Below are positions 43,892 to 48,688 of a stretch of DNA of 51,313 nucleotides, in pieces. The translations under genes were made by a program, and so were the position numbers. Each line of letters opens with the position of its first letter. Positions within the stretch are counted from its first letter, which is position 1. The stretch lies in contig CAZXCI010000001.1 in NCBI GenBank assembly GCA_964639285.1, forward strand, positions 285,757-337,069, written 5' to 3'. The DNA comes from an uncultured Candidatus Saccharibacteria bacterium. Its GTDB lineage: Bacteria; Patescibacteriota; Minisyncoccia; Phycocordibacterales; XYD1-FULL-46-19. The notes below the pieces were generated by a model. It was not told where the DNA came from and made no database searches. It worked only from the letters and a program-made list of their open reading frames with translations.

Positions 43892-43973
43892 GCCGGAGTG
43901 ATGAAATTGGTAAACATGCACGACTCAAAATCGTGTGCCGCAAGGTTTGTGGGTTCAAGTCCCACCTCCGGCA
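43892..43973 (+). tRNA. tRNA-Leu (anticodon CAA), long variable arm, CCA not encoded
   Basis: Acceptor GCCGGAG/CTCCGGC, anticodon stem CACGA/TCGTG with loop CT-CAA-AA, T-arm GTGGGTTCAAGTCCCAC. Confidence 0.95.
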
Positions 43974-44554
43974 CTTTCAAAAAATATTCCCAAAAAGAGA
44001 ATATTGCATATCTCGTAGGTCTATCATTGGGTGATGGCAATTTATCTAACCCGAACGGACGAGCAGTGAGATTGCGTATCACTTGTGACAAAAAGTACCC
44101 CGAATTAACAAGGAGGATAATTTTGTTACTTCAAGGCTTGTTTCCTAAAAATAAGATTGGTGTGATAAAACGAAATGATTCTTGTTTAGATATTAGTTGC
44201 TATTCTAATAAGCTGGAGGGGATGTTGGGATGGAAGGCAAAAAATGGTTCAAAAATTAAGCAAAAAGTTGCCATCCCTTCTTGGATTAAAAAGGATGTAA
44301 ATTATATTAAACCATGTCTTAGGGGTTTGATTGAAACTGACGGTTCCATCTATCAAGACCATAAATATTTAATGGTAAATTTTGTCACAGTTATCCCGAA
44401 TTTAGCTAGCGACTTTGTTTTGTTGGTTCAAAAACTTGGCTATACTTGCAACACCAAAATTAATCAACCCAAAATCGGCCTGGCCAAATATACAATTCGT
44501 ATCTCACGAAAAACAGAGGATTTTATAAAACTAATCGGCATTGACAAGAATTGA
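43901..44554 (+). CDS. Two-motif LAGLIDADG homing endonuclease; start codons lie inside tRNA-Leu
   Basis: AYLVGLSLGDG and CLRGLIETDG motifs; true start uncertain. Confidence 0.82.
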   Translation: MKLVNMHDSKSCAARFVGSSPTSGTFKKYSQKENIAYLVGLSLGDGNLSNPNGRAVRLRITCDKKYPELTRRIILLLQGLFPKNKIGVIKRNDSCLDISCYSNKLEGMLGWKAKNGSKIKQKVAIPSWIKKDVNYIKPCLRGLIETDGSIYQDHKYLMVNFVTVIPNLASDFVLLVQKLGYTCNTKINQPKIGLAKYTIRISRKTEDFIKLIGIDKN

Positions 44555-44771
44555 TGCCTACAGACACGCAGGTCCAAAAAAAATTAAACCCTCTCCCATT
44601 TGACAGCTGAGGCAAAGACGTTTAGTTCTTGGCTGTGTTGCTCTGGTGTCGCCCGGATAGTGGCAAATCTCTCTTGGCCAGGAGTCCAAGTGGAAGTATT
44701 AATGTCCTCAAGAAAATTATTAATCTTTGAATTTTTCTTACCTTGAATTATAAATGTGAAAAATTCCTGAA

Positions 44772-44808
44772 CCGGATATGCCGTGTTGTGCGATGCCCGC
44801 ATTTGCCC
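44772..44808 (-). other. Half attC-like site (R''/L'' side only) and distal inverted arm of cassette 3
   Basis: Minus strand GCACAAC-ACGG-CATATCCGG; 44785-44808 is inverted relative to 45449-45472 (19/24). Confidence 0.55.
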
Positions 44809-44844
44809 GCCCTTGTTAATGGCACGAATGGATGCCCTGAAATC

Positions 44845-45423
44845 CTATTGCAAAATCTTTTCCAACAATTCAGGAAACTCCTCGGTTTTCATATCTCCCA
44901 AGCAATAATGCCCTCGCCCTGACAGTTCAACAATCTCGCCACCAAGCACCTCATGAAAAATTTTTAAACTTTTTTTGCCGTCATCTTCCTCGTCATCGGC
45001 GGTGAATATCACTATTTGATTGATTCTATCTTTAATTGTTGGGTCAATCGGATAAGTGTAAAAATCCACATCTGCGCCATTTCTTTTTTCTTGCGGAATT
45101 TTCCAAGGCGCGACTAAAAAAAGTTTAAAAATTTTGGTCTTAGTCTCACCAAGCCAGCGAACCAAGAAAGCGCAACCGCAACTATGTCCTACCAAAATCG
45201 TGTTTTCATTAACAGCATATTTTTCAAATTCAGCTTTGAATTTTTCATAATCAGGTTGCCAGGGTGAGGGCATGAGAGGAGTTTCCGTCTCAATATTTTT
45301 TGCAATAAGATTTCTTTTTGTCCACGGAATCCAGTGTTTATCATAAGTTCTTGTTTCTGGATTCATCGCTTTTTCAGCATCAGAGGGGCATCCATGGATT
45401 ATTATACAGTTTTTCATTGTCAT
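44845..45423 (-). CDS. RBBP9/YdeN family alpha/beta hydrolase (cassette 3)
   Basis: IIHG, VGHSCG nucleophile elbow, LVAPW, DDE, RGH. Confidence 0.9.
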   Translation of the reverse strand: MTMKNCIIIHGCPSDAEKAMNPETRTYDKHWIPWTKRNLIAKNIETETPLMPSPWQPDYEKFKAEFEKYAVNENTILVGHSCGCAFLVRWLGETKTKIFKLFLVAPWKIPQEKRNGADVDFYTYPIDPTIKDRINQIVIFTADDEEDDGKKSLKIFHEVLGGEIVELSGRGHYCLGDMKTEEFPELLEKILQ

Positions 45424-45465
45424 ATGGTTAAATGTTATTTTAGCACTAGGGCAAATGCGGATTTC

Positions 45466-45559
45466 TCACATCGTTAGGGATATGAGAAGTTGCGACCGAA
45501 GGGAGCAATTTGGGTGGAGAAGTCTGCAAGACTTCGTAACCTCATATCCCTTGTTATAT
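45466..45559 (-). other. attC-like recombination site 2 (94 bp)
   Basis: Minus strand ATATAAC-AA-GGGATATGAG ... CTCATATCCC-TAAC-GATGTGA, with two internal hairpins. Confidence 0.72.
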
Positions 45560-45646
45560 TCCCCGAAGGGCTGAAATTTAGTGCAACGTCCCGAAGGGAA
45601 ATTTCAGAGTTGTCGTGTCTAAAATAAAATTGTAGTCGGATACACA

Positions 45647-46684
45647 TTAATCTTCAAATATTTTTTCAATCAATTTAAATTCTTTTTTATGGCAATCAAA
45701 CTCGACTTTTATTCCTAATGGCAAAATCCATTGAGGGTCTGTATGTCCAAAATCCATATTCGTTATAATCGGAAGACTTGAATTGTGAAATTCTGTATTA
45801 ACCACATTGAGAACATTTTCGTTTAAACTTTTCTTTTCATCTTCAGAATAGTCCCTTGGTCTTCCGATGAGCAATGCGGATATTTTGTCAAACACCCCTT
45901 GCATTCCATAGTTTCGTAACATCCATTTGACTTGGTCTGGAGATGGCTTGTCTTCAGATGTTTCTAAGAAAAGGATTTTGCCATTCCAAAAATCATCATT
46001 AGACCAATATTTTGTGCTTTTCATAAATTCAAGAACTTCAATACAGCCACCAAATAATTCTCCTTGAACTTTTGAACTGCCCTGCAAAATATTCCAACCT
46101 GTGTTTTTTGACATTGGTTTTACTTGTCCAACATTGGACTTGTCACCCCAATCTAAATATCCCTCTGCGTAAGAATCATATGGTTTGTATTCATAATTTG
46201 CAGGATTTTCAAATAGAATTGTTTTGATATGCTCTTGAAAATTTGTACCTAATGCATCCCATTGAGAAAATCCTGCCATGATTGCAGGACCATGTAGAGT
46301 GACAAGTCCTAATTGATTAAAGTATGTCAAAAGAGTGGTTGTATCAGAATATCCAATAATGATTTTTGGGGTTTTTCGAATTATTTCTGCATTTAGAAAA
46401 GGCATTATTCTTACGGAATCATCTCCGCCTATTGATACAAAAATCGCTTTAACTTCTTCATCAGCAAAAGCATCATTTATGTCTTTGGCTCTAAATTCTG
46501 GATTTTTGTAAAGATAATCTGCGTCTTTTCTTGCGGAGGGATATTCTTTAATTTTAAGACCTAAATTTTCAAGTGTCTTAATGCCTGATTCATAAATATG
46601 AGGAAAAACACTTGGGCCTCCCCACGATGGAGATACGACTGCAATGGTATCTCCTTTTTGTAATTTTTTTGGTTTGATTGCCAT
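45647..46684 (-). CDS. S66 peptidase (LD-carboxypeptidase/MccF-like) (cassette 2)
   Basis: GDTIAVVSPS, IGGDDS, IGYSDTT, LFLETSE, DFGHTDP. Confidence 0.92.
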   Translation of the reverse strand: MAIKPKKLQKGDTIAVVSPSWGGPSVFPHIYESGIKTLENLGLKIKEYPSARKDADYLYKNPEFRAKDINDAFADEEVKAIFVSIGGDDSVRIMPFLNAEIIRKTPKIIIGYSDTTTLLTYFNQLGLVTLHGPAIMAGFSQWDALGTNFQEHIKTILFENPANYEYKPYDSYAEGYLDWGDKSNVGQVKPMSKNTGWNILQGSSKVQGELFGGCIEVLEFMKSTKYWSNDDFWNGKILFLETSEDKPSPDQVKWMLRNYGMQGVFDKISALLIGRPRDYSEDEKKSLNENVLNVVNTEFHNSSLPIITNMDFGHTDPQWILPLGIKVEFDCHKKEFKLIEKIFED

Positions 46685-46758
46685 ACTATTTTGATGAATT
46701 GATTGATTTATATAATTTGTGCACCCGACTACTCCTAATTAATTTACACGACAATTGA

Positions 46759-46908
46759 ATATAACGTTTCTGAATATGAGAAGTTTTTGCCCGCCTCCTT
46801 ATTATATTTAAAAAGAAGAAAAGGGCAAAAATTTGGGTAAAAAATGAAATTCAAGTCCAGAATCATATAAATGTGAATTTCATTTTTTCCTCATATTCGG
46901 TGTTGTGC
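46759..46908 (-). other. attC-like recombination site 1 (150 bp)
   Basis: Minus strand GCACAAC-ACC-GAATATGAG ... CTCATATTC-AGAAAC-GTTATAT; internal hairpins 46784-46831 and 46839-46888. Confidence 0.78.
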
Positions 46909-47032
46909 GATGTAAATTTTTTATCTCGTTGTTTATTGAGCTAATCTTTATGCTAATAATAGAAAATTTGATTTTTTGTTTTTAAAAAATGGAAGAGTGG
47001 CAGGGGTGAATTCCATTTTTTAAAAACTCCCC

Positions 47033-47659
47033 TTAGTTACCGTCTTTTTGTCGAAAGTAATCTTCTCTCTGTTGAATCAACCTCTTTGCCTCAGTTTTGC
47101 CGAATTCAGTAATAAACTTAGGAATTCTTGTCTCGAGCATTGCCTTCATGAATTTTTTATTTGACACGGCATCATATGCTGGTTTACCAGCGCTAACCTG
47201 TAAAGCGCTTAACATATCGGCCTCCATTAAAACTAACTCGTCAGTATCTTTAATTTCAAACTTTTTATCATGAACTGCCACAAGGTGAATGCAGCGATTT
47301 TTTTGCGAATCAGTCAAAAACGAAAAGAAATCGTCTTGCAATAAAGCTGCTATTTTCTTCGCACCCAATTCCATATGCAATTGTTTGGCATTTTCTACAA
47401 TTTCAAAATTCATAACTTGGCTCTCTTTGAATATGTCAGAATAACCCCAATCGTGGGCATAAGCTGCGATTACCAAAATATTTCTATCGAGATTAAACTG
47501 GGGATTATGATCTATAATCTGTTTAATCCAACTAATCACCTCCAGCGTGTGTACCTTATCAAAACCACCACGACTTTTTTCTAAATCAGGCAATATTTTT
47601 TCTTTCAGATACTCTTCTATCTTATTTAACTCCATATTCATAAAAATTAAAAACAACAT
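47033..47659 (-). CDS. HD-domain protein (cassette 1)
   Basis: H...AHDWG...H...AD pattern; GAGG SD before ATG 47659 (alternative start 47635). Confidence 0.8.
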   Translation of the reverse strand: MLFLIFMNMELNKIEEYLKEKILPDLEKSRGGFDKVHTLEVISWIKQIIDHNPQFNLDRNILVIAAYAHDWGYSDIFKESQVMNFEIVENAKQLHMELGAKKIAALLQDDFFSFLTDSQKNRCIHLVAVHDKKFEIKDTDELVLMEADMLSALQVSAGKPAYDAVSNKKFMKAMLETRIPKFITEFGKTEAKRLIQQREDYFRQKDGN

Positions 47660-47729
47660 TAAACCCCTCACTATAAAATAAAAATCAAAATTTCTTCGTT
47701 GTTTGATGCGCCGAACTTTGATTTGCCAC

Positions 47730-47772
47730 CGAGATAAAAAATTTATTTCGCACAACTCGTTTCTATACGAAT
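47730..47772 (-). other. attI-like junction at the start of the cassette array
   Basis: Minus strand TCGTATAGAAACGA-GTTGTGC; 47730-47756 is inverted relative to 46902-46928 (25/27). Confidence 0.6.
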
Positions 47773-47872
47773 TAATTTATGATATAATACTTAAAATGGT
47801 GTTTTATGCGAATATCAAATCAAGCCTTCACTTTTGATTCTTTGGTTAATTATACCAAATAAAACATATAAT

Positions 47873-48685
47873 ATGCAATTATTCCTCCAAAAGATGGAAA
47901 TTGAACTTAAAATCAGGAATTATAGCCCCAGAACACTCGAGGCCTATTTGGCTTGCATGAAGGATTATTTTGAATATAAACAAATAAATCTAGATAAATT
48001 AGATCAGGATAATATCCGTAGTTATCTGCTGCAGAAGCAAGGCAAAAACTACTCACCCCAGACTATAAATCTCTATCTAAACGCCATTAAATTCTTTTAC
48101 CATGATATAATTAGGTCGATAGAGCCGATTAACGTCAGATTTGCCAAAAGAAATAAGAAGCTTCCAGTGGTTTTAAGTCGGACAGAAATCCAAAAGTTGT
48201 TGTCAGTGATTAAAAATACTAAACATCAATTATTGCTGTCCCTATCTTATGGCGCCGGTTTGCGTGTAAGCGAAGCGGTTGGCTTGAGATTCAAAGATTT
48301 GAATTTAGATGAATTGACTATCCACTTGAAGCAGGCGAAGGGAAAGAAGGATCGCCTGACTTTGATTCCGGAAAAGTTAGTCGATGATTTGCGCAATATC
48401 ATTGCTGGCAAGTCGGGTGACGACTATGTTTTTGCCAGCGAACGAGGAGGCAAATTGACGGAACGCACTGCCCAAAAAGTCTTTGAGAATGCCCTAAAAA
48501 AAGCAGGGATTAAAAAAGACGCCACCTTCCATAGCTTGCGCCATAGTTTTGCCACGCATTTGCTGGAAAACGGGACAGATGTGCGTTATGTGCAGGAATT
48601 GCTGGGCCATGCCAATATCCGAACGACGCAGATTTATACGCACGTTACTAATCCGGCAATTAGAAATATTAAAAGTCCTCTCTAG
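47873..48685 (+). CDS. Tyrosine recombinase with N-terminal SAM-like domain, integron-integrase-like but lacking the IntI insertion
   Basis: RNYSPRT, LPVVLS, GLRVSE, KGKKDR, HSLRHSFATHLLE, LLGH, TQIYTHV; 270 aa; divergent from the array. Confidence 0.92.
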   Translation: MQLFLQKMEIELKIRNYSPRTLEAYLACMKDYFEYKQINLDKLDQDNIRSYLLQKQGKNYSPQTINLYLNAIKFFYHDIIRSIEPINVRFAKRNKKLPVVLSRTEIQKLLSVIKNTKHQLLLSLSYGAGLRVSEAVGLRFKDLNLDELTIHLKQAKGKKDRLTLIPEKLVDDLRNIIAGKSGDDYVFASERGGKLTERTAQKVFENALKKAGIKKDATFHSLRHSFATHLLENGTDVRYVQELLGHANIRTTQIYTHVTNPAIRNIKSPL

Positions 48686-48688
48686 GCG

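Follow-up and report, generated by a model that had tools for sequence, protein, structure and literature searches.

The DNA examined here is a stretch of 51,313 nt (the window) from contig CAZXCI010000001.1 of an uncultured, ultra-small Candidatus Saccharibacteria bacterium of the candidate phyla radiation, the genome of which is assembled in 29 contigs totalling 708 kb (GenBank assembly GCA_964639285.1). A tyrosine recombinase gene related to those for XerA and IntI lies in it next to a short array of three genes, encoding an HD-domain protein, an LD-carboxypeptidase and a serine hydrolase, all on the minus strand and pointing away from the recombinase gene (Table 1). Read along the minus strand, each unit has the layout GTTNNNN-GAAAT-arm ... 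gene ... arm′-ACATC-NNNNAAC and is followed by an attC-like core. As a preliminary description had proposed from the sequence, the locus is organised as an integron cassette array, and the start of each cassette pairs with the cassette's own end far beyond the 7-bp R box. These long terminal inverted repeats, the arms, are the subject of this report.

Table 1. Features of the recombinase locus and its cassette array, in window coordinates
Feature	Position	Strand	Sequence, evidence or remark
Tyrosine recombinase, XerA/IntI-related	47834..48685	+	270–283 aa; Pfam Phage_integrase 5e-45
attI-like region	47757..47833	-	reads ...TTCGTATAGAAAC-GA- immediately before the first GTT
Cassette 1 leader arm	47730..47756	-	GTTGTGC-GAAAT-AAATTTTTTATCTCG; GTT is the crossover box
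Cassette 1 leader, inner paired block	47672..47695	-	paired in the junction fold
Cassette 1 cargo, HD-domain protein, 202 aa	47033..47641	-	Pfam HD 7e-08
Cassette 1 trailer	46961..47027	-	local hairpin 46978–47027 with C-rich loop, then inner paired block 46961–46984
Cassette 1 trailer arm, ending in R″	46902..46928	-	CGAGATAAAAAATTT-ACATC-GCACAAC
attC-like core 1: spacer A, L″ box, branched terminal structure, L′ box, AAAC	46766..46901	-	stem finder, position-weight matrix, fold
Cassette 2 leader arm	46718..46765	-	GTTATATTC AA TTGTCGTGT ..13.. GTAGTCGG GTG CACA
Cassette 2 cargo, LD-carboxypeptidase (peptidase S66), 345 aa	45647..46684	-	Pfam PF02016, PF17676
Cassette 2 trailer arm, outer part	45609..45646	-	pairs with the leader arm as far as the stop codon (fold, alignment)
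47-nt GC-rich side-hairpin module with ACGTTGCACT	45562..45608	-	at the position of the 2-nt mismatch of other cassettes
Cassette 2 R″ plus 2 extra nt (GAATATAAC)	45553..45561	-	perfect complement of the cassette start GTTATATTC
attC-like core 2, perfect 11-bp L box AGGGATATGAG / CTCATATCCCT	45473..45552	-	R′ degenerate (GAT, 45470–45472)
Cassette 3 leader arm	45449..45472	-	GATGTGA-GAAAT-CCGCATTTGCCC
Cassette 3 cargo, serine hydrolase (alpha/beta fold), 192 aa	44845..45423	-	Pfam PF06821 2e-12
Cassette 3 trailer arm, ending in R″	44785..44808	-	GGGCAAATGCGG-GCATC-GCACAAC
Array-terminal site, 5′ half only: spacer A, L″ box CGGCATATCCGG, start of the terminal structure	44728..44784	-	orphan half score 39.5

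All coordinates and match counts previously given for the inverted repeats of the three cassettes held on recheck. The arms of cassette 1 match at 25 of 27 positions (27/30 when anchored; 30 nt at 90% by inverted-repeat search), and its inner blocks pair over 24 nt at 83%. In cassette 2, the blocks GTTATATTC, TTGTCGTGT, GTAGTCGG and CACA occur with an equal 13-nt spacing in both arms, the trailer arm (45553–45646) being interrupted by a 47-nt insert. The arms of cassette 3 match at 19 of 24 positions (22 nt at 82% by inverted-repeat search).

The region is AT-rich and an inverted-repeat search lists many weak repeats there, which would speak for chance similarity in non-coding DNA. Each leader was locally aligned with the reverse complement of its own trailer, excluding the 7-nt R box. 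The score of cassette 1 (48) is reached by one of 1000 dinucleotide shuffles and by three of 104 non-cognate arms, at least one of which, in homologous locus L082, has the leader and trailer of cassette 1. Two of 1000 shuffles and none of the 104 non-cognate arms reach the score of cassette 2 (33.5); no shuffle and no non-cognate arm reaches that of cassette 3 (24). With so few shuffles at the observed scores, with non-cognate and in-array controls at background and with the same pattern recurring in homologous arrays, it is hardly conceivable that the matches are due to chance.

For this comparison, 80 genomic and 80 metagenomic loci with a homologous recombinase (61–89% identical) were gathered; the arrays compared number 91, in genomes and metagenomes of the candidate phyla radiation (CPR); the relatives are metagenome-assembled genomes of Patescibacteria, e.g., Vogelbacteria and Paceibacterota. 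A cassette opens with ~25 nt that are reverse-complementary to the stretch terminating at its own R″, and further paired blocks often follow. Ungapped arms of at least 18 nt occur in 72 distinct cassettes (median 25 nt, interquartile range 22–27, range 18–32). First cassettes beside attI bear arms too, and in many cassettes, extra paired blocks separated by local hairpins bring the number of matched bases up to ~75. The arms of different cassettes do not pair with each other.

Cassette ends were defined from the inner parts of the sites alone, the arm sequence being unused (52 internal cassettes for gapped scoring, 50 for the structure count). Of the 18 positions from 13 to 30, at least 12 match in 15 of 44 cassettes; among non-cognate start/end pairs the proportion is 0.33%. 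We prefer gapped scores because the ungapped metric undercounts cassettes that carry the 47-nt side module: 24 of the 52 internal cassettes exceed the 99th percentile of non-cognate pairs and 31 the 95th (Mann–Whitney p = 4e-14). The claim that every cassette is bracketed by long arms is thus true of the three in the window, but not of the family as a whole. Over 50 cassettes, 60.4% of the cells are paired, compared with 48.9% in shuffles and 34–41% when partners are slid; the covariation score is 0.34, compared with 0.175 and 0.146–0.188, respectively (0 of 500 shuffles reach either observed value). The arms therefore recur in homologous arrays and surpass both shuffled AT-rich controls and non-cognate pairs.

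The sites between the genes were searched with a stem finder, which gave 47 seed sites, and then with a position-weight matrix; in all, the 91 arrays contain 86 complete attC-like sites. All 47 are built alike: AAC is followed by 1 nt, an 11-bp stem, a variable centre, the complement of the stem, 4 nt (usually AAAC) and GTT; the consensus is ACATC-nnnTAAC-A-[L″]-GTTC...AAC(A/T)TC-[L′]-AAAC-GTTAnnn-GAAAT. Like attC, they are imperfect palindromes of the form R″-L″...L′-R′, with conserved AAC...GTT and a variable centre. In the window, the G of the R′ of core 1 is at 46765. Positions 8–12 of the arms (GAAAT at the cassette start; ACATC at its end, the reverse complement of which is GATGT) are conserved and contain a fixed 2-nt mismatch at positions 10–11: GAAAT faces GATGT in 45 of 72 arm pairs, and positions 10 and 11 are unpaired in 45 and 42 of 50 cassettes, respectively. 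On the coding strand the mismatch consists of A.A and A.C, on the other strand of T.T and a G.T wobble. The earlier observation that arm sequence differs between cassettes is accordingly correct beyond position 12, while positions 8–12 are conserved site sequence common to most of them.

Within an array, the sequences upstream and downstream of one attC do not pair: on average 4.9 of 18 positions match, which is the chance level, and only one of 86 sites reaches 12. R boxes across one attC match at 3–6 of 7 positions, whereas most cognate R boxes match at all seven. R-box position 1, left of the G|TT crossover, is the sole R-box position that is not co-inherited with the cassette (it is not G in 7 of 50 cassettes); positions 2 and 3 never vary among the 50. 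The start of a cassette thus appears to be the complement of the R″ at its own end rather than of that in the upstream attC, as G|TT crossover in integrons has it. Both the unpaired flanks in the array and the behaviour of position 1 are predicted by the integration of a circle at G|TT, with a palindrome that reaches far beyond the crossover. The same scaffold of leader and trailer occurs at different array positions in different genomes, which speaks for mobility, if indirectly. When circularised in silico, the cassette junctions fold as long continuous stems with attC at the tip (cassette 1, -73.7 kcal/mol, z = -9.8; cassette 2, -47.6 kcal/mol, z = -8.2), in agreement with the proposal that the excised circle forms a much longer stem. 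On these comparisons of sequence, a split long palindrome appears to be a well-supported structural origin of the arms.

In classical integrons, the recombinase recognises a folded attC, the stem of which ends at the 7-bp R box; recognition depends on an IntI-specific domain, and 6 nt separate the G|TT crossover from the palindrome's edge. The arms described here are probably the outer parts of a long, imperfect palindromic analogue of attC, in an integron-like system served by an XerA/IntI-related recombinase without the IntI-specific domain. The crossover would lie ~25 nt inside the palindrome, and often more than 100 nt when interrupted blocks are included. Upon integration of a circle, everything 3′ of the crossover (TTNNNN-GAAAT-arm-leader) would become the start of the cassette, while the complement (trailer-arm-ACATC-NNNNAAC) would remain at the end of the cassette, immediately before the attC core. 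A cassette would be bracketed by its own inverted repeat, and the flanks of one attC in the array would be unpaired, because integration splits the palindrome across the cassette ends.

In the free cassette, be it a circle or a single strand, the halves would rejoin and the long stem would re-form: beyond the R box, two more base pairs, the fixed 2-nt mismatch, a further 12–18 bp and often more blocks between small side hairpins. The conserved 12 nt, GTTNNNNGAAAT/ACATCNNNNAAC, may be the R-side binding arm of the recombinase, which would then be Xer-sized rather than 7 bp. We infer that the function of the outer stem is to clamp this R arm with its strand-asymmetric mismatch, which would make the free cassette a stable, correctly oriented substrate for capture at attI; the clamp would stand in for the structure recognition that IntI owes to its extra domain. 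In the array, where the clamp is lacking, attC × attC excision would have to work on weaker R arms.

Several observations sit less easily with this interpretation. In some 40–50% of the internal cassettes no arm is significant, perhaps because arms have decayed, sites were missed or cassettes are composite. The attC core is not always inherited together with the trailer: cassette 1 of the window and a cassette in L082 share a trailer yet are followed by different sites, and the homologue of attC-like core 1 in L071 (83% identical) follows a different cassette, which a simple unit of gene plus attC does not predict. Moreover, the paired blocks reach almost to the ends of the open reading frames (ORFs) and include conserved hairpins, which is more than the clamping of an R arm needs. 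As to the strand that folds, the transition mismatches counted in the arms favour the non-coding strand, though not significantly (59 versus 42, p = 0.11; in a smaller first set, 17 versus 7, p = 0.06). Finally, the classical control outlined below consists of ~11 distinct class 1 cassettes on plasmids only.

That control comprised three class 1 integron arrays on plasmids (L100–L102), scored in the same way. In the anchored GTT/AAC comparison, the arms extend over 7 nt in dfrA1, 11 in aadA5, 12 in aacA4 and 13 in catB3, none scoring above 19/30, whereas the CPR arrays score 21–29/30. Modest pairing beyond the 7-bp R box is thus normal in class 1 cassettes, as aadA5, aacA4 and catB3 illustrate; the CPR arms are about twice as long and consist of several blocks. 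Arms of this kind are hence not equally common in the canonical IntI arrays sampled, and the usual limitation of cassette-end complementarity to the ~7-bp R box does not apply to the CPR cassettes (arms of median 25 nt, plus blocks).

In other respects the locus resembles classical integrons, both the mobile ones of class 1 and sedentary chromosomal ones such as the Vibrio superintegron. A divergent tyrosine recombinase gene and attI adjoin an array of unrelated genes that all run in one direction; between these genes lie imperfect R″-L″...L′-R′ palindromes with invariant AAC and GTT; the first bases of a cassette complement its own R″, as expected from the G|TT crossover; ORF-less cassettes exist; and site families are common to cassettes with unrelated cargo, as are the Vibrio cholerae repeats (VCRs). 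The differences lie in the recombinase, which lacks the IntI-specific domain, in the conserved R arm of 12 nt with its fixed 2-nt mismatch, in the extent of complementarity (18–32 nt ungapped and up to ~75 paired nt in blocks, against 7–13 nt in class 1 cassettes), in the extra L-box bases, which the CPR sites have on the L′ side, and in the half site with which CPR arrays usually end.

IntI proteins have ~320 aa. The recombinase of the window, which is shorter at 270 aa, scores 226.9 with NF040815 ("XerA / integron integrase"; cut-off 220), but only 222 with the integron integrase model TIGR02249 (cut-off 265), which it matches in two stretches that leave model positions 178–236 unmatched. 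Its nearest solved structure by sequence is VchIntIA (2a3v), also matched in two stretches, followed by XerA. These split matches indicate that the additional domain specific to IntI (the I2 helix around patch III) is absent. The catalytic residues R131, H220, R223, H246 and Y255 are invariant.

As in Xer/dif systems (XerC/D, archaeal XerA), the recombinase is Xer-sized and scores as XerA, and the site, like dif, has a short central region between two arms (R, 12 nt; L, 11–12 nt). Unlike them, it is no conserved housekeeping enzyme with a single dif site to act on in each replicon: the gene is missing in all eight genomes of the same genus, the sites are folded hairpins in cassette arrays rather than a single duplex dif site, and the closest solved structure is VchIntIA, not XerA. 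An evolutionary model in which IntI derives from Xer has been published (Escudero et al. 2016; PMC4792948).

The arms could instead work in RNA: the leader and trailer of a cassette would pair in the array transcript and close the cistron into a loop for processing, for stability or for insulating translation from the attC structures. RNase III processes leader–trailer stems of this kind in rRNA. That arms and blocks occupy untranslated sequence (leader and trailer) and extend close to the start and stop codons would suit this role, and in the array both arms may lie on one transcript, while pairing in DNA needs a circle or a long single strand. The trailer hairpin described below also fits: its stems covary, and its conserved, C-rich loop is complementary to a G-rich part of the leader. 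However, pairing begins exactly at the recombination box and is continuous with R″/R′, for which an RNA function offers no reason. Wobble pairs of the G.U type are not in excess on the coding strand, the non-significant lean being the opposite (42 versus 59), and of the two strands it is the coding one that has the worse version of the conserved mismatch (A.A and A.C, against T.T and G.T). No Rfam family is matched: a scan of 44400–47900 gave only a chance microRNA match (E = 0.21). Promoter-like and terminator-like sites are as frequent as in shuffled sequences, which leaves a reading of the arms as promoter/terminator pairs unsupported. We therefore regard an RNA role of the pairing as unlikely.

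It is also very improbable that the inverted repeats are inversion sites at which the neighbouring recombinase flips gene segments as a phase-variable switch. A tyrosine recombinase beside genes flanked by inverted repeats with a conserved core does call such switches to mind, but the longest ORF follows the direction of the array in 66 of 69 arm-bracketed cassettes, the units are separated by conserved, structured attC-like sites of R″...R′ organisation, and the same units occur at different positions in different arrays, which fits excision and insertion.

The pairing is kept through divergence. Among arms that are at least 70% alike, there are 223 two-sided differences that keep a pair as against 66 one-sided ones, the pairs compared not being independent of each other. 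In the homologous cassettes of L025, L039, L082, L089 and L159, positions 13 and 22 change on both arms, and the cassettes of L079 and L123, which have the same cargo (80% identical), are unlike at several positions of the R box, again on both arms. Such two-sided changes would be expected from selection and equally from gene conversion within the fold, and either process presupposes that the fold forms. The survival of pairing by two-sided changes, together with the conserved 2-nt mismatch, points to the arms being a maintained, functional stem rather than a mere relic.

This bears on the suggestion in the preliminary description that the arms record a hairpin-primed or fold-back capture step, for which we found no evidence. 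As a functionless scar of cassette making, by fold-back or hairpin-primed synthesis or by palindromic fill-in, arms might well be near-perfect and stop abruptly within a narrow range of lengths (interquartile range 22–27 nt), as they do; unrelated cargo on the same scaffold would suggest that cassettes are templated, and "empty" cassettes of arm and loop exist. A neutral scar should, however, decay one side at a time, yet diverged homologous cassettes, such as those of L079 and L123, retain their pairing by two-sided changes, and the 2-nt mismatch has been conserved, neither repaired nor spread. We consider this origin quite improbable.

Nor do the genes appear to be paired with cognate ends, as had also been supposed: where two cassettes of different arrays have homologous leaders and trailers (16 pairs), their cargo is unrelated in 15 cases. 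By this comparison, the arms belong to a reusable, modular non-coding scaffold and not to the gene. Cassettes in L039, L082 and L159 share a leader of 130 nt (95–98% identical) and a trailer of 115–139 nt (86–98%), while their interiors (2–2.4 kb) have no significant similarity in DNA or protein. The homology of the scaffolds ends within ~0–50 nt of the first start codon and 0–12 nt of the last stop codon. The leader and trailer of cassette 1 of the window are 73–89% alike in cassettes of L082 and L071, the products of which (463 and 290 aa) are unrelated.

There are also "empty" cassettes without an ORF, made of arms and a small GC-rich loop (L051, 148–182; L066, 688–733; L090, from 1207; L092, 146–180; L182, from 961). 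In these, arms of 12–17 nt (GTTnnnCAAAAT...ATTTTGnnnAAC) close a GC-rich loop of 5–18 nt, e.g., TCCGCTCCGCTCC; in full leaders, this loop motif recurs at the top of a hairpin at the end nearest the cargo. Many trailers open with the motif (T)AAGGAG directly 3′ of the stop codon (46963–47029 in the window; L036, L070, L073, L084, L094, L039, L082 and L159). The hairpin that follows has covarying stems and a conserved loop, TTCACCCCTnnCCCCTCT, that complements a G-rich segment of the leader (AGAGGGGT..AAGGTG); in cassette 1 of the window, its stem is a perfect inverted repeat of 17 bp (100%). Within the scaffold, this hairpin may function as an element of DNA or of RNA.

The finding of scaffolds 86–98% identical around entirely different cargo, with homology stopping near the ORF ends, would imply active loading or swapping of ORFs. 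Tentatively, cassettes might be built on a palindromic scaffold of ~250–400 nt (trailer, attC and leader, rod-like in the free circle), at the open tip of which unrelated ORFs or small operons would be loaded or swapped by an active process; empty cassettes would then be unloaded scaffolds. We hold this to be possible, though by no means the expected outcome.

Transposons with terminal inverted repeats and miniature inverted-repeat transposable elements likewise have cargo bracketed by inverted repeats of 20–30 nt that are conserved in a family while the cargo differs. Here, by contrast, dispersed copies are lacking and the repeats begin at the recombinase core box (GTT/AAC) beside structured attC sites; neither a target-site duplication nor a transposase gene was seen. 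The 708-kb genome has only three sites, all in this array, and a strict site pattern occurs in 24 of 301 genomes of the class, with one to four matches each that are mostly clustered on one contig (a control pattern matches once). The dispersed multi-copy insertions that characterise such elements were thus found neither in the genome itself nor in the class.

We also considered a dispersed "vehicle", i.e., two mobile palindromic copies that bracket a gene and recombine, and rejected it for these genomes: outside the array the host genome is free of sites, positive genomes have one to four mostly clustered matches, and the flanks of attC in the array are not palindromic.

The sites themselves are composite. 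A GC-rich module of ~45 nt with ACGTTGCACT or a relative of it occupies the position of the mismatch in what we call type 2 trailers (cassette 2 of the window, L070, L119, L123 and L127), and the pairing of the arms resumes beyond it. Over 152 nt, the 47-nt module of the window with attC-like core 2 and 12 nt (45460–45611) is 96.7% identical to positions 733–884 of L040, a Peregrinibacteria locus, even though the flanking cassettes differ; because of this match, site modules seem to move or recombine independently of the cargo.

At the far end of the array, the terminal 5′ half site is not followed by an L′-R′ half. The 67 nt at 44728–44794 are 84–97% identical to the ends of the arrays in L017, L071 and L082 and to the first part of a complete attC in L092; orphan 5′ half sites usually close the related arrays. 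At the other end, 47757–47790 of the attI-like region resemble the 3′ half of an attC, with an L′-like CGTATAG and AAAC, then two extra nt and GTT, an arrangement also found in genomes G020 and G021. In related arrays, the starts of first cassettes cluster ~100–300 nt upstream of the recombinase start.

Together with a LAGLIDADG ORF, the recombinase and the array form a platform of ~4.7 kb (43975–48688) that lies between tRNA-Leu and miaA. The LAGLIDADG endonuclease ORF (43892–44554) overlaps the 3′ part of tRNA-Leu and adjoins the end of the array. The recombinase gene, missing in the eight genomes of the same genus, is present in only 13 of 61 relatives and is patchy in the family. Two genomes of the same genus have parB-tRNA-Leu-miaA with nothing between (locus set L192–L195), and a third, G006, retains a remnant of the first ~30 codons of the recombinase gene just upstream of miaA. 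In view of the empty locus in two relatives and the remnant in the third, the platform seems to be ancestral at this locus and to have been lost or eroded in relatives.

The long split hairpin at the cassette ends is real and general, and apparently undescribed; in the literature, incompletely covered, we found no description of integron-like arrays in CPR bacteria or of long complementarity between cassette ends. The array follows the logic of an integron, but two features that define integrons or are customary in them, the IntI domain and complementarity limited to the R box, fail. Ordinary integrons are not known to bracket their cassettes with the halves of a long hairpin; the feature opens a new approach to the recognition and construction of cassettes. 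Platforms of this kind are likely to be missed, or to have their cassette boundaries misplaced, by annotation software that demands the IntI domain and scores attC with the classical model.

Across many CPR lineages, a recombinase without the IntI domain is paired with sites that bear an Xer-sized R arm, a conserved strand-asymmetric mismatch and a cassette-variable stem that would exist only in the free cassette. This gives a testable picture of an Xer-like enzyme handling folded single-stranded sites, as proposed for the intermediate between Xer and IntI, and the clamp would predict a built-in asymmetry between capture, with a clamped substrate, and excision, with an unclamped one. The scaffold with swapped cargo does bear on the making of cassettes, though otherwise than by fold-back capture: conserved non-coding scaffolds around unrelated genes are an entry point to the problem of cassette origin, and if scaffolds are indeed loaded, the making of integron cassettes could be studied directly.

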